Assembly: GCA_965116375.1 (NCBI GenBank)
Contig: OZ220681.1
Location: forward strand, 676,224 to 708,223
Source: Dehalococcoidia bacterium
GTDB taxonomy: Bacteria > Chloroflexota > Dehalococcoidia > Lucifugimonadales > Lucifugimonadaceae
Direction of reading: 5' to 3'
DNA: 32,000 nucleotides
The notes beneath the pieces were generated by a model, which was not told the DNA's origin, ran no database searches, and saw only the letters and a list, made by a program, of their open reading frames with translations. How positions within the stretch are numbered: the first letter of the stretch is position 1; each line of letters starts with the position of its first letter. A program made the position numbers and the translations under genes. Positions 9,358-31,122 of this stretch are shown here, in pieces.

Positions 9358-9384
9358 TGTAAATGTCAACTAATTCGTTGACAG
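9358..9384. repeat. IS481 terminal inverted repeat (end next to the transposase stop)
   Basis: tgtaaatgtcaactaattcgttgacag. The reverse complement of 10379..10405 is tgtagatgttaggtaattcgctgacag. Confidence 0.85.
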
Positions 9385-10341
9385 AAGTTTCAAGGCTTGG
9401 AGTGGACTCTTGCCGTTTAGGCCCTGGTGCGGTCTCTCCGTGTTGTAGTAGAGGAGGTACTCCACCAGCTCATCCTTCAACTCCTCCACCGATTCGAAAG
9501 TCGTCTCTTCCAGCAGGTCCTCGTTCAGCGTCCGCCAGAAGCGTTCGATCTTCCCGTTGGTCTGTGGCCGGTAGGGCCTGGTGTAGCGGTGCTTGATGCC
9601 CAGTTCCAAGAACATCCGCTCCGTTGGATGTTGCTCCTTATTGGTGGGCGCTGCGACTTCCGGACCGTTGTCGGTAAGAATCTCCTCGAAGCGGATCCCA
9701 TACTCGGCGTTCAGCAGGTTGATGCTCTTGAGCGCAGCAAACATCACGCTCAGGCTCTTGAGATCGTCCACCACCTCCGCCCAGGCGAGACGCGTGCAGG
9801 AGTCGAGCACCGACACCAGGAAGTAGCGTCTTTTGGCGCCCACGATCAGGTCCTTGCTCAGGTAGTGGGAGTCGAGGTGGCCCAACTCACCAGCCCTGGT
9901 CTTGATGATCTGACGCTTGGACTGTCGCATGGGCTTGGTCAACCGGTTCAGGCCATGGCGTTTGGTGATGGCGTAGATGGTCGAGGGCGCTGGAGTGTGA
10001 GACTTCAGGACGGGCTTGAGTATGGCATATATCTCGTAGCGGTTGATGCCCCTCCGCCGCAACTCGATCACCTTCTCCTCGATGAAGGGGATGGTGCGGC
10101 GGCTCTTCCACCTGGGTCCCCGTTTACGGGGCAGAAGGGCGTCGTCCGCTCCCGAGTGGCGGTAGCGGTTGTAGTACTTGGCGAAGGTCTGACGGTTGGT
10201 GCCGTGGTAGGCGTAAAAGTCCTGCAGGAACCGGAACTGGTGATGGCGCTTGGCCTTGACCAGCTCGTACTCCCGGATCAGGAACCGGTACTTCTGGATG
10301 TAGTTCCGCTCAAGCGTGCGGTCGTTACTGTTGCTACGCAT
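9370..10341 (-). CDS. IS481-family transposase (HTH + rve/DDE integrase core)
   Basis: DDE triad context (GHLDSHYL, ILTDNGPE, NGKIERFWRTLNEDLL) and YTRPYRPQTNGK. Start chosen at the ATG preceded by GGGAGG (5-nt spacer); the track ORF extends to a TTG at 10377. Confidence 0.9.
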   Translation of the reverse strand: MRSNSNDRTLERNYIQKYRFLIREYELVKAKRHHQFRFLQDFYAYHGTNRQTFAKYYNRYRHSGADDALLPRKRGPRWKSRRTIPFIEEKVIELRRRGINRYEIYAILKPVLKSHTPAPSTIYAITKRHGLNRLTKPMRQSKRQIIKTRAGELGHLDSHYLSKDLIVGAKRRYFLVSVLDSCTRLAWAEVVDDLKSLSVMFAALKSINLLNAEYGIRFEEILTDNGPEVAAPTNKEQHPTERMFLELGIKHRYTRPYRPQTNGKIERFWRTLNEDLLEETTFESVEELKDELVEYLLYYNTERPHQGLNGKSPLQALKLLSTN

Positions 10342-10378
10342 CTTCGCCTCCCGATCAGCATGATCCATAAATGCCAAT

Positions 10379-13665: not shown

Positions 13666-14211
13666 ATGAACTGTCCGTCTTGCGAAAACGAAGAGTCTAA
13701 GGTCATCGATTCGCGCGAATCGCCGGACGGCATCCGGCGCAGGCGCGAGTGCCTTCGATGCAGAAAGCGTTACACCACCTATGAGCGTGTGCATACCGTC
13801 CAACTCATGGTGGCCAAGCGGGACAATCGCCGGGAACCCTTCTCGACGGGCAAGTTGGAGCGTTCCTTTCGAATTGCGTGTGCCAAACGCCCATTTGAGG
13901 TTGGAGCCATTTCTAAGATGGTTAGTGATATCGAAAGGGAGTTGCACCGGCTCGGCAAGCCGGAGGTGGAATCAAGCGTGATTGGCGAAATGGCCATTGA
14001 ACGGCTCAAAGAACTCGACAGCGTCGCGTACATCCGGTACGCGTCGGTCTATCGCGATTTTCAGGACGAGTCCAGCTTCGCGAAAGAAGTCGAGGCCCTC
14101 GGCAGTGAGTCCACGTCCGGCAGCGGGCGCAGCCAACTAAGACTGATACCAGACAACGTGCCGCGCCTGGCCGATCGCGGAAGGAAGCGGCGGAAACTGC
14201 CGGCTTCATGA
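13666..14211 (+). CDS. nrdR: Transcriptional repressor NrdR
   Basis: MNCPSC...CLRC zinc ribbon followed by an ATP-cone (KRDNRREPFSTGKL...). Located directly upstream of a ribonucleotide reductase gene. Confidence 0.92.
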   Translation: MNCPSCENEESKVIDSRESPDGIRRRRECLRCRKRYTTYERVHTVQLMVAKRDNRREPFSTGKLERSFRIACAKRPFEVGAISKMVSDIERELHRLGKPEVESSVIGEMAIERLKELDSVAYIRYASVYRDFQDESSFAKEVEALGSESTSGSGRSQLRLIPDNVPRLADRGRKRRKLPAS

Positions 14212-14333
14212 CACGCGGCAGGGGCCTCCTTGCCGCGTCCCTGACCGGAGATTCTCCACTCCGGCTCACACACATTTGGGCACAACCAAACTATTGTTAA
14301 AAGCAGTCTTAACAGGACCCAGGAAAACAGCAG

Positions 14334-16781
14334 ATGACAACTGATCATAACGGGACTAGCGATTCCTTCCGGCCAGCCGAGTTGACCGAAAACGCGCGGG
14401 TCGTTGTCGAGAAACGCTATTTGCGAAAAGGCGAGGACGGCGAATACTCAGAGGACTCTCTTGGCATGTTTCGACGCGTTGCCGACGCCCTCGCCGAGCC
14501 GGACCGCCGGTACGGCGCAACCGACGAACAGGTCGAGGAAACGGCGCAGCGGTTCTACGAGATCATGGCCACCCTCGAGTACCTGCCGAACTCACCGACA
14601 CTGATGAACGCCGGGACCGGTGCGGGCACGTTGTCCGCGTGCTTCGTCCTGCCTCTGACCGACAGCATGGAGGGCATCATGGGCGCGGCCCACGACGCAG
14701 CCATGGTGCAGAAGTTCGGCGGCGGCACCGGGTTCGCACTGTCGGAGCTGCGCCGAAAGGGCGCCCACATCAAGACCACGCATGGCAAGGCGTGCGGCCC
14801 CGTGGCGGTCCTCAAGCACCTGTCCTCAGTCTCCACCCTCGTTACGCAGGGCGGAAAGCGGGACGGCGCAAACATGGCCGTCATGGACGTCCACCACCCG
14901 GACATCATGGAATTCATTGATTGCAAGCAGGTAGAGGGAGACATACACAATTTCAACATCTCTGTGGGCGTCAGCGACGAGTTCATGGAAGCCGTCGCCG
15001 GGGGTACCACCTATCCACTCAAGGCCCCGGTCGACCCGAGCGATTCCTATAGTGAAGAGGAGGAAGTGGGACGCCTGGACGCCAGGGAGGTGTTCGAGAA
15101 GATAGTCCAGGGCGCGTGGCGAAACGGCGAGCCCGGCATGATCTTCCTCGACGAGGTCAACAGGAACAGCCCGGTCCTCCACGTCGGGCGGATAACGGCC
15201 ACCAATCCCTGCGGCGAACAGCCATTGCTGCCAAACGAGTCCTGCAACCTTGGTTCGATAGACCTGTCCAAGTTCGTGATCGGCGAATACGCCACCGGTG
15301 TCTCCACTAATGGAGATTCCCCGAACAACGGCGCCGCTCCCCAAATCGACTGGGCGGGGATCGGCCACACAGTACGGACGTCCGTACACATGCTCGACAA
15401 CGTGATCGACGCAAACCAGTATGCCGTCGACCCGATACGCGACATGACATTCCACACACGGAAGATCGGCCTGGGAGTCATGGGATTTGCCGACATGCTC
15501 GTGCAGCTGGGCATTCCGTACGACTCGGAAAAGGGCATCGAGACCGGTCGCGAGATGATGCGGTTCATCATGGTGCAGGCCGATGCCGCCTCAGCCGAGT
15601 TGGCCAAGACCCGCGGGCCCTACCCCGCGTGGCACGACGGCGAGCCCAAGAGACGAGGCGAGGCGCCCATGCGCAACGCCTGCCGGTTGACCGTCGCCCC
15701 CACCGGCACCATATCGATGATCGCCGGCTGCTCCAGCGGAATCGAGCCGCTGTTCTCGCTGGCATTTCGCAAGCACAACATCCTGGAAGGCCAGACGCTC
15801 TACTACGTGGACCGGAACTTCGAACGTGTGGCCCGTGAACGCGGCTTCTACAGCGAAGAGCTTATGGGCTACCTGTCGGATGGCGGTTCGTTGTTAACGC
15901 GCGAAGACGTTCCGGACGACGTGAAGCGGCTGTTCCACGTGTCCGCCGACATCTCCCCTGAAAACCACGTGCTGATGCAGGCCGCATTCCAGGCAACCAC
16001 CGACGCCGGCATTTCCAAGACCATCAACTTCCCCAATTCAGCCACCGTCGAGGACGTTGAAAACGCCTACATGCTCGCCTGGAGAGAAAGATGCAAGGGG
16101 ATAACCGTCTACCGGGCCGGCTCACGCGAAAAGGAAGTGCTTACCACCGGCCACGAGGAATCGAAGTCCGCTGACGACGCGGCGGCAAGCAATGGGCACA
16201 TGCCCATACCCCAGTACGTGGCCGAGCGGGAGCGGCCGGCCAAGCTGTCCGGCACGACGCGACGAGTACGAACGGGACGCGGGAACGTGTACGTGACGGT
16301 CAACATGAGCGAGGACGGACGGCCGTTCGAGGTCTTCGCCGCGCACGGCAAGGCCGGCGGCAACGACGCCGCAATGGCCGAAGCCGTGTCGCGCATGGTG
16401 TCCCTGTCGCTGCGAAGCGCCGTGGACCCGAAGGACGTGGTGACCCAGCTACGCGGAATAACCGACATGCCGGCGTGGGACCAGGGCCAGTTGATTCGCT
16501 CCGTGCCAGACGCCATCGCGCTCGTGCTCGATGAGGTCATCGCCGAATCCGAGTCCAGCAGAACGCCACTGTCCGATGATGCCGGACAGTTGACAATGCT
16601 CGAACGGCCCACAGCCAGGGAACTGGGAATGCCGTCAGCGCAATCCGTCGACTTCATATCGGCTCCCGTCAGGGACATGGCCGAGATCCTGGCCGCCAGT
16701 ATGTGCCCGGACTGCCAATCGCCGTTGGCCCACGAAGAGGGCTGCGTCAAGTGCCACGTCTGCGGCTTCAGCCAGTGTTGA
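14334..16781 (+). CDS. nrdJ: Adenosylcobalamin-dependent (class II) ribonucleotide reductase
   Basis: LSACFVL, KFGGGTGF, GGKRDGANMAV, NPCGEQPL..NESCNLGS active-site run. C-terminal Cys-rich tail CPDC...CVKCHVCG. Confidence 0.92.
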   Translation: MTTDHNGTSDSFRPAELTENARVVVEKRYLRKGEDGEYSEDSLGMFRRVADALAEPDRRYGATDEQVEETAQRFYEIMATLEYLPNSPTLMNAGTGAGTLSACFVLPLTDSMEGIMGAAHDAAMVQKFGGGTGFALSELRRKGAHIKTTHGKACGPVAVLKHLSSVSTLVTQGGKRDGANMAVMDVHHPDIMEFIDCKQVEGDIHNFNISVGVSDEFMEAVAGGTTYPLKAPVDPSDSYSEEEEVGRLDAREVFEKIVQGAWRNGEPGMIFLDEVNRNSPVLHVGRITATNPCGEQPLLPNESCNLGSIDLSKFVIGEYATGVSTNGDSPNNGAAPQIDWAGIGHTVRTSVHMLDNVIDANQYAVDPIRDMTFHTRKIGLGVMGFADMLVQLGIPYDSEKGIETGREMMRFIMVQADAASAELAKTRGPYPAWHDGEPKRRGEAPMRNACRLTVAPTGTISMIAGCSSGIEPLFSLAFRKHNILEGQTLYYVDRNFERVARERGFYSEELMGYLSDGGSLLTREDVPDDVKRLFHVSADISPENHVLMQAAFQATTDAGISKTINFPNSATVEDVENAYMLAWRERCKGITVYRAGSREKEVLTTGHEESKSADDAAASNGHMPIPQYVAERERPAKLSGTTRRVRTGRGNVYVTVNMSEDGRPFEVFAAHGKAGGNDAAMAEAVSRMVSLSLRSAVDPKDVVTQLRGITDMPAWDQGQLIRSVPDAIALVLDEVIAESESSRTPLSDDAGQLTMLERPTARELGMPSAQSVDFISAPVRDMAEILAASMCPDCQSPLAHEEGCVKCHVCGFSQC

Positions 16782-17797: not shown

Positions 17798-17856
17798 CCG
17801 GTAAGGGCCTCGTGGGTTAAGGTCAACGGGTCGAATCATCCTGCCGAAAGGAACGA

Positions 17857-18288
17857 ATGTTCATGGCCGATATAGACCTTGGGGACCTGAACTACCTGGC
17901 GGTCCTCGTCGGGATCATCTTCAACCAGGTGCTCGGCGCCGCGTGGTACACCGTCTGGAGCAAGCCCTGGATGGCCGGCGTAGGTCTCACGATGGAAGAC
18001 ATGGAGGCCATGAAGGGCACACCGCGGCAGTGGTACCCCTACGTTGTCGCTATCGTCAGCACTCTGGTGTTTACCCTCGGCCTGGCGATTTTGGTTCAGG
18101 GCATGGGCGCGGAGAACGCTGTTGACGGCCTCACGCTCGGGCTCCTCGCGGCTGTCGCCTTCATTGCGACGTCGTACGCCACTACGTACAGCTTCGAAAA
18201 CCGCGGCCTGAAGATTTTTCTGATCAACATCGGTTACCCGCTGATTTCCTACTCCGTGATCGGCATCCTGCTGGCCGCCTGGCAATAG
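17857..18288 (+). CDS. DUF1761-family membrane protein
   Basis: 143 aa with four predicted helices. The N-terminal LNYLAVLVGIIFNQVLGAAWY pattern is typical of DUF1761. Confidence 0.7.
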   Translation: MFMADIDLGDLNYLAVLVGIIFNQVLGAAWYTVWSKPWMAGVGLTMEDMEAMKGTPRQWYPYVVAIVSTLVFTLGLAILVQGMGAENAVDGLTLGLLAAVAFIATSYATTYSFENRGLKIFLINIGYPLISYSVIGILLAAWQ

Positions 18289-21751: not shown

Positions 21752-22810
21752 CTACCCCGGTTTGCGGGCGTGGATGAAGTACATCGGCGTGAAGATGCCG
21801 AGCCGGCCCGCCTCGACCATGGCGTCCGCACAACGGTTCAGCGCCTCCGATACGCGGACCGATCCCTTCGGCGCGATGCGAAGCACTTCAAGCGTCCTCA
21901 GCAGATTCTGCGTGGACCAGCGTCCGACCCGCGAACTGCGAAATGCGGCCACTGATATACCCGAACCGACCAGGGGTTCGTACCACGGAATCGACGGCCC
22001 GGTCTGTTCAGTAAGGTCCCTGGTTTCCAACACCTCGAACCCCACTGTTCGAAGCGCGTCATCAACCGTTTGCCTGTCGTCGATGTCGAGCAGGCCGCCT
22101 CCCAGTTCTATGTCTGCTTTGATCTCGAGATGCTTGGGGTCCTGGGCATCGAACCGTTCAGTCAAGCAGTATTCATAGTTGGCGAAGCACGTGCCCGGCT
22201 TCAGCAAACGAAAGGCCTCGGCGTAGACGCTGAGTTTGTCCGGCGCGCAACAAGTGGCTTCGATACCGTACACGGCGTCGAACGATTCGTCGGGAGCATC
22301 CACGTTCAAGAAGTCGCAGTGCAGGAAATCGACCAGGTGTGTCACTTCCGCTTCTTCAGCCAGCCTGCGGGCACGTTCGAGCTGATACGCATTGCTGTTT
22401 ACGCCTACGATCCTGGCGCCGGAAAAACGGGCGATCTCCAATAGTGGCCCGCCGATGCCGCAACCCAGATCGGCAACGCGCATCCCGGGCCTGAGCCCGA
22501 GCATGAGGGCCAAATAGTGCTCGTGGCGCGTAAGCGATGCCTTGAAGCTCTCACCGGGAACGCGCGGGGCAAAGTGAAAGGATTTGCCCCATCCATACTC
22601 ATAGAAGTCAGAAACCAGGTCATAGTAGAGGTCAGTGAAGTCCTTGACATCACGCTCTTTGGCTTCCCATTCGCCGCGCTTGCCCTTCCCATAACGGTCC
22701 TCGTATTCGCGGACGGCAGAAGCGCTCAATCTTCCCTTCAGGAGTTTGGAGAGCTTGAATGCCATCAAAACGTGCTCGGACTGACTATAGACCGGGATAG
22801 CCCCGGCCAT
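21752..22810 (-). CDS. Sterol C-24 methyltransferase-like SAM methyltransferase (Erg6/SMT1 homologue)
   Basis: End-to-end resemblance to Erg6/SMT1: DFYEYGWGKSFHF, GESFKASLTRHEHYLA, DLGCGIGGPLLEIARFSG, YGIEATCCAP, LKPG, IELGGG, GFEVL, IPWYEPL, APKGS, and FTPMYFIHARKP at the C-terminus. Start uncertain (ATG 22810 or 22765). The track ORF to 23080 overlaps the next gene. Confidence 0.85.
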   Translation of the reverse strand: MAGAIPVYSQSEHVLMAFKLSKLLKGRLSASAVREYEDRYGKGKRGEWEAKERDVKDFTDLYYDLVSDFYEYGWGKSFHFAPRVPGESFKASLTRHEHYLALMLGLRPGMRVADLGCGIGGPLLEIARFSGARIVGVNSNAYQLERARRLAEEAEVTHLVDFLHCDFLNVDAPDESFDAVYGIEATCCAPDKLSVYAEAFRLLKPGTCFANYEYCLTERFDAQDPKHLEIKADIELGGGLLDIDDRQTVDDALRTVGFEVLETRDLTEQTGPSIPWYEPLVGSGISVAAFRSSRVGRWSTQNLLRTLEVLRIAPKGSVRVSEALNRCADAMVEAGRLGIFTPMYFIHARKPG

Positions 22811-22922
22811 CGAAACGGGCGGCCTTGGACATTCTAATCGTCGACGCGACGGCTGGGTTGGCCCGCCGGGAAATGCTGGATCCCAGTCACTGTCCGCGGC
22901 AGCACGATCCGCGGATCGGACG

Positions 22923-23366
22923 CTACAGAGTGTCGAATCCCTCCCACCCGGGCAGCGCCGCCGATTGCAGGACCCACTCCGCCATCTGCTCCTCATCGAG
23001 TTCGCCCTCGTATATGTCGACCCATCGAGCGTCGGGGTCCTTGCCCGAGCCGGGCGGCTCAGGCCGCAGCGATGCCCCATTCAAAAAGGTCACCTTCACG
23101 TAACGGGTGAAGACGTGGTAGCTCGCAAACCACCCCATGCCCTCGATTCCATACCACGGCGAATTCCACCGGACGGCTTTTCGCACGTCGGGCACAGTGC
23201 GCACGATCAGGTCATCCAGGCGCCTCCCAACGTCGCTCTTCCACCCTGGCATCGCCGCAATGTAAGCCTGCACGGGCGCATCCCCGTCTGCCTTCGCGAT
23301 CTGCGGGTTGCCGCCCGAAAGCAGCACCGCCTTCTTGGCTTTGGACTTCGACGATTTGGCGGGCAT
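22923..23366 (-). CDS. DUF1801 (YdhG-like) domain protein
   Basis: 147 aa. VQAYIAAMPGWKSDVGRRLDDLI...AVRWNSPWY pattern of DUF1801. SD GGAGAG 7 nt upstream. Confidence 0.75.
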   Translation of the reverse strand: MPAKSSKSKAKKAVLLSGGNPQIAKADGDAPVQAYIAAMPGWKSDVGRRLDDLIVRTVPDVRKAVRWNSPWYGIEGMGWFASYHVFTRYVKVTFLNGASLRPEPPGSGKDPDARWVDIYEGELDEEQMAEWVLQSAALPGWEGFDTL

Positions 23367-23489
23367 CGCATACTCTCCAATCCGCGGTTGGCGCTGACCG
23401 GTTGGCCGAGGGTTGCTGTGTTTCTTCGGAAAACGCTATTGCGTGAACCGGAACATTCTTCCTCTGATAATAGGCGGTTCTACGGTAAT

Positions 23490-23519
23490 GTCATTTCGAG
23501 CGAAGCCGGGAAATCTGAG
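23490..23519 (+). repeat. Hairpin repeat family 1 copy (GTCATYYYGAGCGMAGCCGRRRRATCTGAG)
   Basis: gtcATTTCgagcgaagccggGAAATctgag. The 5-nt arms are perfectly complementary. Confidence 0.7.
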
Positions 23520-23633
23520 TCAGCCGCTAACAGAAACGGCCCGATCCACAACCGCCCCGGTGCTCCCCCATCGTCCTACCCGCCGAAGAACTTCATCCCA
23601 TGCCCCCTTACTGGCATCTCTAGCCCCCTTACT

Positions 23634-23663
23634 GTCATCCCGAGCGAAGCCGAGCGATCCGAA
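23634..23663 (+). repeat. Hairpin repeat family 1 copy (degenerate 3' arm)
   Basis: gtcatcccgagcgaagccgagcgatccgaa. Preceded by a local duplication ccccttactgGcatc / ccccttactgTcatc. Confidence 0.6.
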
Positions 23664-23837
23664 CCGCCCTTTTACCGTGCACTTCGTACTCGACAAACCC
23701 TTTCTGCACCACTCCGCTACCAACACCATCTTTTGTACCCGCCGTACCAGACCACACCCGTCATTCCAGTCCCCGTTCACCTACCCTCACCCCAACGGCA
23801 TTCACAAACCCCGAACTCCCACCAAACCCCCCGTAGC

Positions 23838-23856
23838 GGCGGGTCTCAGACCCGCC
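23838..23856. repeat. Palindromic hairpin (family 3-like)
   Basis: ggcgggtct-c-agacccgcc, perfect 9+9 palindrome. Confidence 0.6.
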
Positions 23857-23946
23857 TGGGCCAGGGCGCGGCGTTACCCGTGCACCTCCTACGTCTCCAC
23901 GAGCAGATGGGGAAGGTGTGGGTAAGCCGCGATGGTTCCGCGCCCG

Positions 23947-23980
23947 ACCGTGGGTACCGGATCAAGTCCGGCAAGTCGAA
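23947..23980 (+). repeat. Hairpin repeat family 2 copy
   Basis: accgtgggtaccggatcaagtccggcaagtcgaa, 32/34 identical to 24125..24158. Confidence 0.75.
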
Positions 23981-24031
23981 TTGGGCTGGGTATCAGAGTC
24001 GTGCGTGGGGTAGCCGCGCCCGTCCTTTGCC

Positions 24032-24063
24032 CCGTGGCTACCGGGTGTCCCCGGTACGACGAA
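24032..24063 (+). repeat. Hairpin repeat family 2 copy (diverged)
   Basis: ccgtggctaccgggtgtccccggtacgacgaa. Same frame of conserved flanks, stem ACCGGG/CCCGGT. Confidence 0.55.
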
Positions 24064-24124
24064 AAAGGGGGTGGGTCTGTCGGCTGGGAGTTGTAGATGT
24101 CGTGCGTACCCACCTCCACGCCCC

Positions 24125-24158
24125 ACCGTGGGTACCGGATCGAGTCCGGCAAGTCGAG
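24125..24158 (+). repeat. Hairpin repeat family 2 copy
   Basis: accgtgggtaccggatcgagtccggcaagtcgag. Confidence 0.75.
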
Positions 24159-24173
24159 TAAGGGTGGACGCGG

Positions 24174-25511
24174 TCAGAAGGGGACGGGTGAGATTGACAC
24201 CAGGTCTTTGAGGGGGACTCGGATTTCGTCGGGGTCCCTGTAACGGCGCGAGTCGTCGTCGGGCGGATCGTCTTCGCTTGGTGGGCCGAGGTGGATTATC
24301 GGGCGTTTATTCCTGGGTGGCGGTTCAGGCGCGGGTGGTCCTTCGGGGTCAAGGGAGGGTTTGAAATCCTCCCCTACAGTTTCAGAGCAGTCCCGGCAAT
24401 GTCCGTATCCACGGGAGGGTTTGAAACCCTCGCCTACGCGGGTGTTTTGGGGCTGGTCAGGAGCGGCGGAAGAGGATGGTTGCGCAGATGCAGGAGATCC
24501 TTCGGCTTCGCTCAGGATGACAACGCCGGGAGGGTCCGAGTCTTCCGGGGGTTTGTCGTCGTTATGGGCGAGGAGGTGGCGGTTGCGTTCGAGGTACTGG
24601 AGGGTTTGGGGGTCGAGTGACGTTGTGTCCGTGAGTGCGTTGAGGCTGCCATCTTCGTTTATGAGGTGTTTGAACTTTCGCTTGTGGTATTCCAACACGG
24701 CCCTATTGGCTGCCCTGACCGCATTGTTGTCCTGGAAGGCGATCTTCAAGCATTTGTACCCGTAGGAACCTTTGCCGAAGGGGTCGTCTCCGGGGTTTTT
24801 GATCGGGGTGGTGTTGTAGTCGCCTACTTGATCGGTGGCGTAACTTTCGTCCCAGTGTTTGCGGTTTGCGTCGAGAGCGACTTCCCAGGCTTCTTCGCCG
24901 CCGTAGATGTGGAGCTTGGCCCGGAGTCCCGCCCGATCTCTTTCGTACTCCTCAATTGTGTAGTTGTCGAAGTCGAACGGGGCGTCGTCGTCGTTGTACT
25001 GTTTGGCGTTGCGGCGCGCCCGGTTGGCAGGCAGTTCGTGAGACATGGGTTCGTCGTTCCCGTCCTCATCGGCGACGACGGTGTGACCGGGGAGGTTGTC
25101 GAATCCTCGCGTGATCAGCCTGTCGGATGCTGCGAGGCGGTGGCGCGGTTTGAAGTCTTCGAGTTTGCCTTGCATGGCATCCATGAGGAACCGGACGATG
25201 TCCCTGCCGCCGTCGGTTTCCTCCCTGATGATGTCTGCGAGTTCGTCTTTTGGCTCGGGCTTGCCGGGGGCGCGTTCGGGCTTGGCGCCGTTGGAAGGGG
25301 TTGAGACGGCCTGCTTGACGGCGTTGGGGATTTTGACTCCGAGTCTTTGGAGTTGGCGCGTAGCTTCCATCCGGTGCCAGATGTTGGCGCCTTCGATATT
25401 GCCCACAACGACGTCGACCAGGAATTCGACGATGAGCTGGCCGCCGTTGGTGGCCTCCTGGACGACTTCGGCGATGGGTCTGTATTGGGTTTTTGTCGGG
25501 GAATCGCACAT
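24174..25511 (-). CDS. Orphan protein with tandem 46-aa N-terminal modules and a repeat-encoded C-terminal tail
   Basis: 445-aa ORF with no antisense competitor of better quality. Acidic, protein-like composition for the first ~320 aa. Internal duplication (aa 13-58 vs 91-136, 17/46 identical, ungapped). A strong promoter lies immediately upstream. No family recognised. The last ~125 aa are encoded by hairpin-repeat DNA. Confidence 0.55.
   Translation of the reverse strand: MCDSPTKTQYRPIAEVVQEATNGGQLIVEFLVDVVVGNIEGANIWHRMEATRQLQRLGVKIPNAVKQAVSTPSNGAKPERAPGKPEPKDELADIIREETDGGRDIVRFLMDAMQGKLEDFKPRHRLAASDRLITRGFDNLPGHTVVADEDGNDEPMSHELPANRARRNAKQYNDDDAPFDFDNYTIEEYERDRAGLRAKLHIYGGEEAWEVALDANRKHWDESYATDQVGDYNTTPIKNPGDDPFGKGSYGYKCLKIAFQDNNAVRAANRAVLEYHKRKFKHLINEDGSLNALTDTTSLDPQTLQYLERNRHLLAHNDDKPPEDSDPPGVVILSEAEGSPASAQPSSSAAPDQPQNTRVGEGFKPSRGYGHCRDCSETVGEDFKPSLDPEGPPAPEPPPRNKRPIIHLGPPSEDDPPDDDSRRYRDPDEIRVPLKDLVSISPVPF
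24353..24377 (+). repeat. Hairpin repeat family 3 copy
   Basis: gggagggtttgaaatcctcccctac, 23/25 identical to 24413..24437. Lies inside the 3' part of ORF 24174..25511. Confidence 0.7.
24413..24437 (+). repeat. Hairpin repeat family 3 copy
   Basis: gggagggtttgaaaccctcgcctac. Core gagggttt-g-aaaccctc palindrome. Confidence 0.7.
24491..24521 (-). repeat. Hairpin repeat family 1 copy (inverted orientation)
   Basis: The reverse complement reads gtcATCCTgagcgaagccgaAGGATctcctg. Lies inside ORF 24174..25511, where it encodes VILSEAEGSP. Confidence 0.7.
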
Positions 25512-25518
25512 ATGTTCT

Positions 25519-25547
25519 AATTTAGGGGGAAAGGGGGGTGGTGTCAA
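25519..25547 (-). promoter_or_regulatory. Sigma-70-type promoter giving a leaderless or near-leaderless mRNA for the orphan ORF
   Basis: On the minus strand: TTGACA, 17 nt, TAAATT, 7 nt, ATG. No Shine-Dalgarno sequence. Confidence 0.5.
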
Positions 25548-25798
25548 ATGGGGGTTGGCGTAGTTGTGTAAGGGCGTGGTTGGGGTGTGGGAGAACGCGA
25601 ATTGGGAGTAGGCCCTTGAATACCCGATTCCCCGGTAAGTCAGGGATTACGCAAAAGTTCCCTCGACGGAGAGTGGGAGAATGATCATAAAGAGCCACGG
25701 GGTCCGCCGGACCCATGAAGTTGACATCTCCCGATGTCGTTGTGATTCTCAACCCACCGTTCAATTGATTGGCAAGGCCGCGTCCACAACCGCTACCA

Positions 25799-26272
25799 AT
25801 GACACGAAAAACCAGACCAGCCATACCAACCCATACACGCCTCCTCATCGCCTGGCTCTTCGTCCCGTTGCACCGGCTCTTGTTCCGCCTCTCGAAAGGC
25901 CGACTGTTGGGCCGACTGGAAGGCCACGGCGTACTTGTCCTGGTGACCAAGGGACGCAAGAGCGGCAAGCCGCGTTCGTCCCCCCTGATGTACTTCCAAT
26001 TTCAAGGGTCAGACGACCTCATCATCGCCGCTTCAAACTACGGCCTGGACCACCACCCCGCCTGGTACCTGAACGTCGAAGCCCACCCTAACGTCTCCGT
26101 AGAAACCAGGGGCGAGCCCTTCGCAGCAACCGCCCGCATTCCACAAGGCGAAGAACGCGCCGCCCTGTTCAACAAAGTAGCCGCCGCAAACCCGCGCTTC
26201 GCCCGCTATCGAGACGCCACCCACCGCCAAATCCCCGTCGTTGCGCTCCGCCGCGTCCATCGACCGGGTTAA
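25799..26272 (+). CDS. Deazaflavin (F420H2)-dependent nitroreductase family protein (DUF385/Ddn-like)
   Basis: GRKSGKPRSSPLMY, IIAASNYGLDHHPAWYLNVEAHPNVSV and the C-terminal IPVVAL pattern typical of this family. The track start is a TTG at 25769; the ATG at 25799 is preferred. Confidence 0.75.
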   Translation: MTRKTRPAIPTHTRLLIAWLFVPLHRLLFRLSKGRLLGRLEGHGVLVLVTKGRKSGKPRSSPLMYFQFQGSDDLIIAASNYGLDHHPAWYLNVEAHPNVSVETRGEPFAATARIPQGEERAALFNKVAAANPRFARYRDATHRQIPVVALRRVHRPG

Positions 26273-26343
26273 GCGGTAAGCTCGGCGTCCCGTCCGGCAT
26301 CCACCAAGTGCCTGTGCAAGTGCGGTTCAGACAAGTGAGCTAG

Positions 26344-26372
26344 TTGATAGCTGTACCGGCACACGGTATAGT
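26344..26372 (+). promoter_or_regulatory. Sigma-70-type promoter giving a leaderless higB mRNA
   Basis: TTGATA (26344..26349), 17 nt, TATAGT (26367..26372), 6 nt, ATG (26379). No SD. Confidence 0.55.
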
Positions 26373-26378
26373 CAATTC

Positions 26379-26657
26379 ATGATCCGTTCGTTTCGCCATC
26401 GAGGGTTAAGGCGGCTTTATGAGCGAGACGACCCAGCCAGGATCGCCGCCGACCAATTGCACCGAATCACTCTCGCCCTCGCAGACCTGGATGCGGCCGG
26501 TAGGCCGAGTGATCTCGATCTGCCGGGATACAGACTGCATCCACTCAGAGGGGACAGAAGAGGTCTGTGGAGCATCGCAATTTCTGGCAACTGGCGGATC
26601 ACCTTCAGGTTTGAAGCTGGCGACGTGTACGACGTTGATCTCGTCGATTACCACTGA
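26379..26657 (+). CDS. higB: HigB-type toxin (RelE/ParE superfamily, plasmid maintenance system killer)
   Basis: 92 aa. MIRSF.HRGL..L...D....I.......I...L..L........L..PGYRLH.L.GDR.G.WSI.I.GNWRI.F.F..GDV..VDL.DYH is the canonical HigB pattern. Confidence 0.85.
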
Positions 26658-26671
26658 TGAGGAGAGAGACC

Positions 26672-26968
26672 ATGCCGATGAAGAATCCGCCCCATCCGGG
26701 TCGCAGCGTCAGGGAGAACTGCCTGGACCCTCTCGGCCTGAGCGTCACCGAAGCGGCGGAGGTCCTGGGAGTTGCCCGTCATACCCTTTCGCGGGTATTG
26801 AACGGTCACGCGGCGATCTCGCCCGACATGGCCATTCGGCTGGAAAAGGCCGGATGGTCCAGCGCAGACTTCTGGTTGAGCCGCCAGACCGCATACGACC
26901 TGGCTCAGGCGCGCAAGTGTAAAGACAGGATAAAGGTTAAACGCTACCAGCCCCTGCCCACCGCATAG
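26672..26968 (+). CDS. higA: HigA-type antitoxin (XRE-family HTH)
   Basis: [49 protein letters not shown] at 26672 preceded by GAGGAGAG. The track ORF begins at 26657, overlapping the higB stop. Confidence 0.85.
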
Positions 26969-31045: not shown

Positions 31046-31122
31046 TGGTGGGCCCGGGATGACTCGAACATCCGACCTCTACTTTATCAGAGTAGCGCTC
31101 TAACCGGCTGAGCTACGGGCCC
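31046..31122 (-). tRNA. tRNA-Ile (anticodon GAU), CCA encoded
   Basis: Reverse complement GGGCCCGTAGCTCAGCCGGTTAGAGCGCTACTCTGATAAAGTAGAGGTCGGATGTTCGAGTCATCCCGGGCCCACCA folds as a perfect cloverleaf: 7-bp acceptor, GCTC/GAGC D stem, CTACT/AGTAG anticodon stem, loop CTGATAA, GGATG/CATCC T stem, TTCGAGT loop. Confidence 0.95.

Follow-up and report, generated by a model that had tools for sequence, protein, structure and literature searches.

The window analysed here is a stretch of 32,000 nucleotides from a Dehalococcoidia bacterium (GenBank assembly GCA_965116375.1, contig OZ220681.1, positions 676,224 to 708,223), and the gene in question lies on its minus strand at 24174-25511. It encodes a member of an unnamed, multi-copy protein family, and the gene is most likely SOS-induced under predicted LexA control, as suggested by a LexA-type box lying across its start codon. 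What could such a protein do? We tentatively regard it as a small-terminase-derived factor made in the SOS response, in which the double N-terminal module would serve for recognition and the conserved C-terminal tail for recruiting a partner, a reading to which we give somewhat less than an even chance. DNA damage would switch on the SOS response, and hence prophage induction, and the protein would be made; its N-terminal domain, distantly related to phage small-terminase modules on this proposal, would recognise DNA or a partner, while the tail would recruit another partner, possibly the phage large terminase. The protein would thus act as a domesticated or satellite-type small-terminase-like factor at the borders of defence islands. 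The protein family and both of its folded domains are undescribed; the way the gene is regulated and its possible descent from a terminase are of known kinds.

The open reading frame (ORF) has exactly the sequence quoted in a first-pass annotation, which was made from the letters alone, and its product is divided as follows.

24174..25511, minus strand: coding sequence, 445 amino acids plus stop; member of an unnamed multi-copy Dehalococcoidia family
25338..25475, minus strand: N-terminal module 1, three helices, residues 13-58
25104..25241, minus strand: N-terminal module 2, duplicate of module 1, residues 91-136
24558..25001, minus strand: central all-helical domain, residues 171-318, predicted by AlphaFold2 with a local confidence score (pLDDT) above 90
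24312..24557, minus strand: disordered linker rich in proline and acidic residues, residues 319-400, of family-variable length and with in-frame repeats resembling repetitive extragenic palindromes (REP-like)
24177..24311, minus strand: conserved C-terminal tail, residues 401-445

The tandem duplication of a 46-residue module pointed out in that annotation is borne out, since residues 13-58 and 91-136 are identical at 17/46 positions without gaps (counted by hand), and the profiles of the two modules, built from 101 homologues, align with an hhalign probability of 99.8% (E 7.7e-28), against E 0.5 for the control comparison of module 1 with the central domain. Judged by these profiles, the internal duplication is far beyond chance. 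The alignment of 101 members contains 13 invariant and about 40 near-invariant residues, which are spread over three regions. In module 1 the conserved positions are T21, G24, F30, D33, H46 and R47, with the counterparts T99, G102, F108, D111, H124 and R125 in module 2. In the central region they are Y184, D192, H201, D231, P236, P240, D243, G246-K247-G248, Y250, Y252, N262 and R266, and the invariant ones of the domain are P240, D243, Y250, Y252 and L255 together with the GKG motif. The acidic middle stretch and the aromatic- and glycine-containing segment singled out earlier are both present, the former (DDDAPFDFDNYTIEEYERD) as residues 174-192 and the latter (FGKGSYGYKCLK...) as residues 245-280, and they hold many of the invariant or near-invariant residues of the family. 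The tail, with the family consensus PPPRK..I.LGPP..DPPDD.PR..RDP.EIRIPLRNLLS, is kept in the same alignment beyond a linker of hypervariable length, and is likely a partner-binding peptide. That the ORF is a genuine protein-coding gene is therefore well supported.

A full-length AlphaFold2 model, built with the family alignment, has its all-helical central domain with pLDDT above 90 at residues 171-315 and is disordered from residue ~320 on, and the N-terminal 145 residues modelled alone reach a pLDDT of 84 and a predicted TM score of 0.73. In this model the two N-terminal modules are predicted to pack as one compact domain. The structural comparison proposed in the annotation yielded nothing: neither the full model against PDB and BFVD nor the N-domain model against PDB gave a Foldseek match at E<1, and sequence-profile matches to PDB entries were confined to de novo designed proteins and alphaRep noise. 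Three-helix repeats of the RecX kind were rejected for want of Pfam or fold support, and so was a mimic of the single-stranded DNA-binding protein tail (DDDAPF), since the segment lies inside a confidently folded domain. The suggested resemblance to helix-turn-helix (HTH) proteins did not hold up either, because no Pfam HTH family recurs among 45 modules (one HTH_40 match, E 0.07) and Foldseek finds none. Moreover, with a pI of 5.0 and a net charge of -23 the whole protein is acidic, and the net charges of the two modules are -1 and -3, which speaks against an HTH of the classical, basic DNA-binding kind.

The regulatory region of the gene comprises three elements.

25548..25565, minus strand: C-rich element upstream of the -35 box, CGCCAACCCCCA, with the family consensus CCGCCAyyCCCCC
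25519..25547, minus strand: sigma-70-type promoter TTGACA-17-TAAATT, 10/12 matches in a promoter scan
25505..25518, minus strand: LexA-type palindrome of the form GAAC-N4-GTTC, AGAACATATGTGCG, lying across the start codon; its right half-site has one mismatch

The scan thus recovers the leaderless-type promoter reported for this gene, ending 7 nucleotides before the ATG, and the seven bases between the -10 box and the ATG read AGAACAT. Two features had passed unremarked: the promoter is conserved across the paralogues, and the start codon lies inside a conserved LexA-type palindrome. The upstream consensus of the family reads CCGCCAyyCCCCC, TTGACc, 17 nucleotides, TAnnnT, AGAACAT and ATG, and the -35 box, the 17-nucleotide spacer, the -10 box, AGAAC and ATG are kept in 27/28 family loci, which include distant members with different C-termini (L023, L025, L028, L031 and L034). 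In the upstream alignment the promoter is much more conserved than the protein. Since the -10 box is always 7 nucleotides from the ATG, with no space for a Shine-Dalgarno sequence, the mRNA is most likely leaderless and transcribed from its own conserved promoter.

The box that covers the start codon in the family reads AGAACATATGTTCG and is perfectly palindromic. The LexA protein of Dehalococcoides reportedly binds a GAAC-N4-GTTC motif. The consensus of Bacillus subtilis LexA is CGAACN4GTTCG (PMC3091678, PMC3323433), and the family box agrees with a consensus of this type at 13/14 positions; six of the 28 copies match the full 14-nucleotide Gram-positive consensus equally well. All boxes in the 28 loci span -7 to +7 of the ATG, 11 of them being perfect and 15 having one mismatch. 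The perfect motif occurs 13 times in the 299 kb scanned, and 10 of these occurrences are on family start codons. The left, non-coding half-site is GAAC in 26/28 loci, GAAT in one and AAAC in one (the register of L034 was corrected by eye), and the right half-site is GTTC in 13/28. The right half is itself coding, and its effect can be seen in the protein: in 179/238 scored proteins the second residue is F, C, S or Y, the next commonest being T with 18, and the codons read directly in the loci are TTC, TGC, TAC, AGC, ATC and TCC. The set F/C/S/Y is chemically odd, and each member is one base change from TTC, which argues for selection on the DNA rather than on the amino acid.

A clade-type motif placed over the promoter, as in a LexA regulon, is thus found both in the window and in the family (motif from PMC3091678, PMC3323433), and the operator covers the same -10/+1 region as in the Cheo-type regulons of Firmicutes and Actinobacteria described in these papers. 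Perfect and one-mismatch boxes are mixed in the family, as in natural SOS regulons. The family differs from them in having the start codon of a leaderless gene at the centre of the box, and in that this gene is a multi-copy one rather than a repair gene. With a LexA-type box on its start codon, the gene should be repressed by LexA and induced by DNA damage, and SOS induction is what the motif makes most likely. Where the box is missing, in the subfamily of P0187 (locus L022), the gene is preceded by an ordinary leader that contains the Shine-Dalgarno-like sequence GAAGG. The one other perfect GAAC-N4-GTTC in the window, at 17851-17862 (GAACGAATGTTC), overlaps a minus-strand ATG beside a cytochrome c gene; it has no adjacent SOS gene and may be due to chance.

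The same palindrome could, in principle, be the operator of the protein itself or of some other regulator, with the two modules binding the two half-sites of an autoregulated transcription factor. Tandem like modules would suit a dyad operator, and a near-invariant left half-site beside a variable right one, together with a promoter far more conserved than the protein, would also be in keeping with it. However, the agreement of six boxes with the Gram-positive LexA consensus, the net negative charge of the modules, a model that matches neither HTH nor winged-helix folds, and the ordinary leader of the box-free superfamily members all speak against autoregulation, and we consider it improbable.

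How large is the family? The protein was first described as an orphan, which proves wrong: among ~5.8 billion proteins searched there are 199 homologues at E<=1e-3, with 70% identity for the best match, and none of them has a name or a Pfam domain. The accompanying statement that no known family is recognisable is upheld, as the protein has no match in Pfam, NCBIfam or PADLOC, and nothing significant in PHROGs at full length. All matches with organism titles come from metagenome-assembled genomes (MAGs) of Dehalococcoidia. The 19 loci found in a scan of species-representative genomes are confined to four Dehalococcoidia MAGs, and OZ253497.1 has at least nine of the copies, OZ244715.1 at least four and CBDCPN01 at least five; a scan of metagenomes of the Joint Genome Institute gave one locus only. 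That the family is unnamed, multi-copy and restricted to soil Dehalococcoidia (Chloroflexota) is well supported. A profile search of 1.84 billion cluster representatives recovered 732 proteins at E<=1e-3, a number that falls to 414 at E<=1e-10; the double module is all that most of the 732 share, and beyond it they run into unrelated C-termini of low complexity. Among 252 scored proteins the number of modules is two in 231, three in 13 and four in one.

The terminase connection comes from this wider superfamily. The first-pass annotation saw a faint likeness to phage small terminase subunits (TerS), and this hint gains weak support: phrog_641 ('terminase small subunit') is matched by 11/30 diverse N-domains, with E 1.3e-4 at best, and the gene of P0226, a distant two-module relative, directly precedes a Terminase_6N/6C gene, whose start it overlaps. 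The likeness is weak and without a fold match, and the N-domain of the window itself does not match phrog_641. Other PHROG matches among the 30 N-domains are to phrog_15261 (18) and phrog_6694 (17), both of unknown function. The P0226 pair may be a minimal terS-terL outside a full prophage; its loci (L029:89-2318 and L030:91-2320) are on a short contig, with a luciferase-like monooxygenase after the terminase. The C-terminal part of P0226 is not homologous to the central domain of the family.

As to architecture, the family resembles the TerS proteins of pac-type phages and of Staphylococcus aureus pathogenicity islands (SaPIs) in that a helical domain for recognition at the N-terminus is followed by a second helical domain in the centre, then by a flexible linker and a conserved peptide at the C-terminus; the weak phrog_641 matches and the classic terS position of P0226, overlapping terL, add to the likeness. 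It also resembles SaPI operon I in its control by a LexA-type box (PMC5052747). Because the terS gene of SaPIs lies in a LexA-controlled operon (PMC5052747), a LexA-controlled TerS-like gene has a precedent. The family differs from solved or curated TerS proteins, to which it shows no significant sequence or fold match, and its N-domain is a duplicated three-helix pair rather than a single HTH. In addition, its genes are solitary, occur in at least nine copies per genome, have no phage or satellite genes nearby and are absent from viral contig collections.

Several observations weigh against a small-terminase-derived, SOS-induced factor. The terminase homology is weak (E 1e-4 at best), no Foldseek similarity to any solved small terminase was seen, the charge of the modules, acidic to neutral, would be unusual in a DNA-binding domain, and two relatives of P0226 (P0231 and P0249) are not beside a terminase. 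By tblastn, no terminase gene was detected in the window or at any close-family locus; no BLAST match was found in 50,697 phage genomes (INPHARED), and none in IMG/VR; no satellite integrase, capsid or replication gene was present at the 28 promoter-type loci or at L022 and L033. In headful packaging it is normally the DNA downstream of terS that is taken up, but the variable islands described below are on the upstream side. On the regulatory side, half of the copies are imperfect in the right half-site and L031 keeps the left half only; LexA binding is predicted from the motif, and no SOS core gene such as lexA, recA or uvrA lies in the window or the family loci, where a search with E. coli LexA did not find lexA either. 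Finally, the family ratio of nonsynonymous to synonymous substitution rates (dN/dS), 0.3-0.8, could also mean relaxed constraint.

A bolder form of the terminase reading, which we think quite unlikely, is that each copy is a one-gene 'packaging beacon'. Once DNA damage had induced the resident prophages, each of the many chromosomal copies would bring the phage packaging motor to its own locus, so that the adjacent chromosome, defence islands included, would be transduced at high frequency and then reshuffled by homologous recombination.

What surrounds the copies? The earlier placement of the gene next to higBA is right in so far as Pfam confirms both genes nearby (higB 26379-26657, higA 26657-26968), but a gene for an F420H2-dependent quinone reductase (25769-26272) stands between them and the target, and higBA is not a conserved partner, being found only at the locus of the window. 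The advice to look for homologues and their neighbourhoods bore fruit: relatives were found and defence islands recur upstream of them. Neighbours differ between loci, and all-against-all clustering of the ORFs of 22 loci revealed no conserved partner gene except a type IIG restriction-modification enzyme in a subset. This enzyme (~1040 amino acids, 68-81% identical), which recurs in several genomes, is encoded 1.7-2.6 kb upstream and on the same strand in four loci.

L005, 583-3861: type IIG gene
L007, 1125-4250: type IIG gene
L021, 4382-6307: type IIG gene
L026, 4317-7451: type IIG gene

Decayed remnants of it persist in L010, L018, L019 and L027. The cargo between the type IIG gene and the target family varies, and includes a 559-residue protein of unknown function, a TIR-like gene, and ApeA-HEPN with a PIN toxin-antitoxin pair. 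Other upstream genes encode a DrmMI-like enzyme (L016), a GajB/UvrD-like helicase (L013), a TIR-like effector (L021), ApeA/PDC-S58 and a PIN toxin-antitoxin pair (L026), PDC-M14B (L027), the Pycsar effector PycTM (L006), and N6/N4 methylases, one of which is fused to Mrr (L011 and L019). Some copies border housekeeping genes only, such as those for creatininase, enoyl-CoA hydratase and amidohydrolase. The region directly upstream of the copies is thus usually a variable restriction or defence island, and it is well supported that the cassette formed by the gene and its promoter marks the downstream edge of such islands; higBA of the window fits the pattern as one more island cargo rather than a partner. 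With no PADLOC match and no conserved partner, the protein itself does not count as a known toxin-antitoxin or defence component. The arrangement resembles a defence-island hotspot, in that copies border variable restriction-modification, toxin-antitoxin, HEPN/ApeA, TIR-like, Pycsar and GajB-like genes, and differs from one in that no integrase or tRNA attachment site was seen and the flanking marker is itself multi-copy and fast-evolving.

These neighbourhoods also suit a different role, that of an SOS-induced host modulator of the adjacent restriction or defence genes, for example a factor of the restriction-alleviation or anti-restriction type that shields unmodified repair DNA, working by protein-protein contacts or DNA mimicry and having no part in packaging. 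The type IIG genes and remnants and the other defence genes directly upstream (L006, L011, L013, L016 and L019) would be its targets, an acidic protein with modules that are not basic would suit such contacts, and the LexA-type box serves this explanation equally well. The third helix of the modules points the same way, as its family motif (H/V)R(L)xAA(R/K)xLxxxG resembles the helix of HEAT-PBS repeats, which are protein-binding, and thereby HEAT-like and alphaRep proteins (E 0.009-0.05). The match covers only ~20 residues and is below significance, and the family module has three helices in 46-50 residues rather than two in 31. Against a modulator are the several copies beside housekeeping genes only, the lack of a match to PADLOC or to any anti-restriction family, and the fact that the identity between copies does not follow the type of neighbouring system. 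We rate this role as rather unlikely.

Returning to the terminase-like factor that we favour, its genes have a history of their own. CBDCPN01 contains five dispersed copies that are 87-97% identical in amino acids, and between copies the nucleotide similarity starts sharply at about -55 from the ATG, where the C-rich element (25548..25565) marks the 5' edge, and ends within ~60 nucleotides past the stop. Copies overall are 35-97% identical. Syntenic copies are only 39-56% identical (L015/L019, L007/L018, L013/L017 and L002/L012), whereas the genes flanking these pairs are 88-99% identical, with dN/dS of 0.06-0.24. The pair L003/L004 presents the reverse case, the gene being 97% identical in amino acids with a synonymous divergence (dS) of 0.024 and the flanks having dS of 0.36-1.09. 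L026 and L027 are syntenic with flanks 92-94% identical, and their similarity resumes 43 nucleotides before the ATG; the genes themselves (L026:10001-11368 and L027:10001-11440) form a mosaic in which the promoter and N-terminal modules are 91% and the central domain 70% identical in nucleotides, a pattern that implies intragenic recombination breakpoints. Both of these loci have genes for DNA polymerase III alpha and for a DUF2007 protein just downstream. Taken together, these alignments show that the history of the gene is decoupled from that of the flanks and that recombination has broken both at the edge of the promoter and within the coding sequence. It is well supported that the gene and its 55-bp promoter behave as a discrete cassette that is exchanged or homogenised between loci and strains. 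Because the copies sit at syntenic positions, gene conversion or exchange between old paralogous sites explains the decoupling best.

Would a selfish cassette account for this as well? The protein would then be an unrecognised recombinase or transposase that moves its own promoter and ORF or captures neighbours in an SOS-dependent manner, loosely comparable to the LexA-controlled integron integrases. The sharp edges of similarity at about -55 and just past the stop, the five dispersed copies of 87-97% identity in one genome, the decoupled history with variable content immediately upstream, and the REP-like hairpins around and inside the gene could all be explained in this way. However, there are no terminal inverted repeats, target duplications, catalytic motif or known recombinase fold, and the copies are syntenic across genomes, for which gene conversion between old paralogues is a better explanation than repeated insertion. 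We regard a recombinase as very unlikely. Classical transposition was rejected, given the syntenic sites and the lack of inverted repeats, and a search for the hallmarks of an insertion sequence found neither inverted repeats at the cassette ends nor a transposase domain. A REP transposase of the HUH/RAYT type was likewise rejected, the fold being all-helical and without an HUH motif.

Repeats occur both within the gene and beyond its 3' end.

24355..24431: REP-like palindromic hairpin GAGGGTTTGAAAyCCTC, two copies inside the ORF, encoding VGEGFKPSR and VGEDFKPSL
24496..24521, minus strand: in-frame repeat GTCATCCTGAGCGAAGCCGAAGGATC, encoding VILSEAEGS, with an inverted copy at 23634-23659 in the 3' intergenic region
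23486..24167: repeat-rich 3' flank, with a 53-nucleotide repeat (23937-23989 and 24115-24167) and a 33-nucleotide repeat (23486-23518 and 23630-23662), two copies each

A hairpin of the GGGTTTGAAACCC type is present at the same ORF position in 11/20 loci, encoding VGxGFKPxR, and the GTCATCCTGAGCGAAGC element is in frame in 6/20, encoding VILSEAEGS. The disordered linker evidently tolerates in-frame repeats, since the tail beyond it stays conserved. The 3' flank at 23486..24167 contains no credible long conserved ORF, and Rfam gave no match over 22800-26400. Short repeats resembling REPs or miniature inverted-repeat transposable elements surround the gene (CCGGTACCCACGGTGGGGCG, GTCATCCyGAGCGAAGC and the GGGTTTGAAACCC hairpin) and are seen in the flanks of L003-L019 as well; in the 32-kb window they are almost confined to 23486-24167 and 24350-24522. 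In many proteins of the superfamily the C-terminal end is a peptide encoded by such a repeat (PLPQSAGEGRDG, VIPAKAGIH).

An ORF that runs into repeat DNA may also be a decaying, functionless relic, open by chance or by its repeat content. The dN/dS values quoted above would agree with this, and some copies look damaged: L001, L012 and L014 are without the conserved C-terminal tail, L014 also without the -35 region, and L011 is shifted out of frame by 1 nucleotide between its ATG and the first module, unless this reflects a homopolymer error of long reads (L011:5978-6090). Nevertheless, invariant and near-invariant residues across 101 sequences, a tail conserved past a hypervariable linker, confidently modelled domains and a conserved promoter would be hard to reconcile with decay; this explanation is largely refuted by the conservation, and we give it hardly any credence.

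Some other features of the window may be mentioned. Mobile DNA is present elsewhere in it, as an integrase/transposase of insertion-sequence type (rve, rve_3, HTH_28) at 9370-10377 on the minus strand, 14 kb from the target. The only tRNA gene, for tRNA-Ile (GAT), is at 31046-31122 on the minus strand and not beside the target. At 21752-22750 on the minus strand lies a gene for an S-adenosylmethionine-dependent methyltransferase with a Sterol_MT_C domain (E 5e-25) and CMAS-like features, and such a sterol-methyltransferase-like gene is unusual for a Dehalococcoidia genome. The plus-strand region 13666-16781 encodes the NrdR repressor followed by the large subunit of ribonucleotide reductase with a C-terminal TSCPD domain.

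The Dehalococcoidia are an abundant group that is difficult to culture and whose genetics is opaque. In them, a large unnamed family (732 cluster representatives) with two confidently folded domains that lack a structural relative is here tied to a regulatory signal that can be tested, namely a LexA-type box with a leaderless start codon at its centre. Should the SOS link prove true, the family would be a major and previously unseen part of the SOS regulon of this lineage, and the right half of its operator would be codons 1 to 3, visibly constraining residue 2. The position at the island edge, together with a history decoupled from the flanks, suggests a role in the control or exchange of defence islands. 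If the terminase link is true, the concept of the phage satellite would extend to a one-gene element, and if the copies do act as packaging beacons, they would amount to a single-gene satellite with built-in lateral transduction of defence islands.

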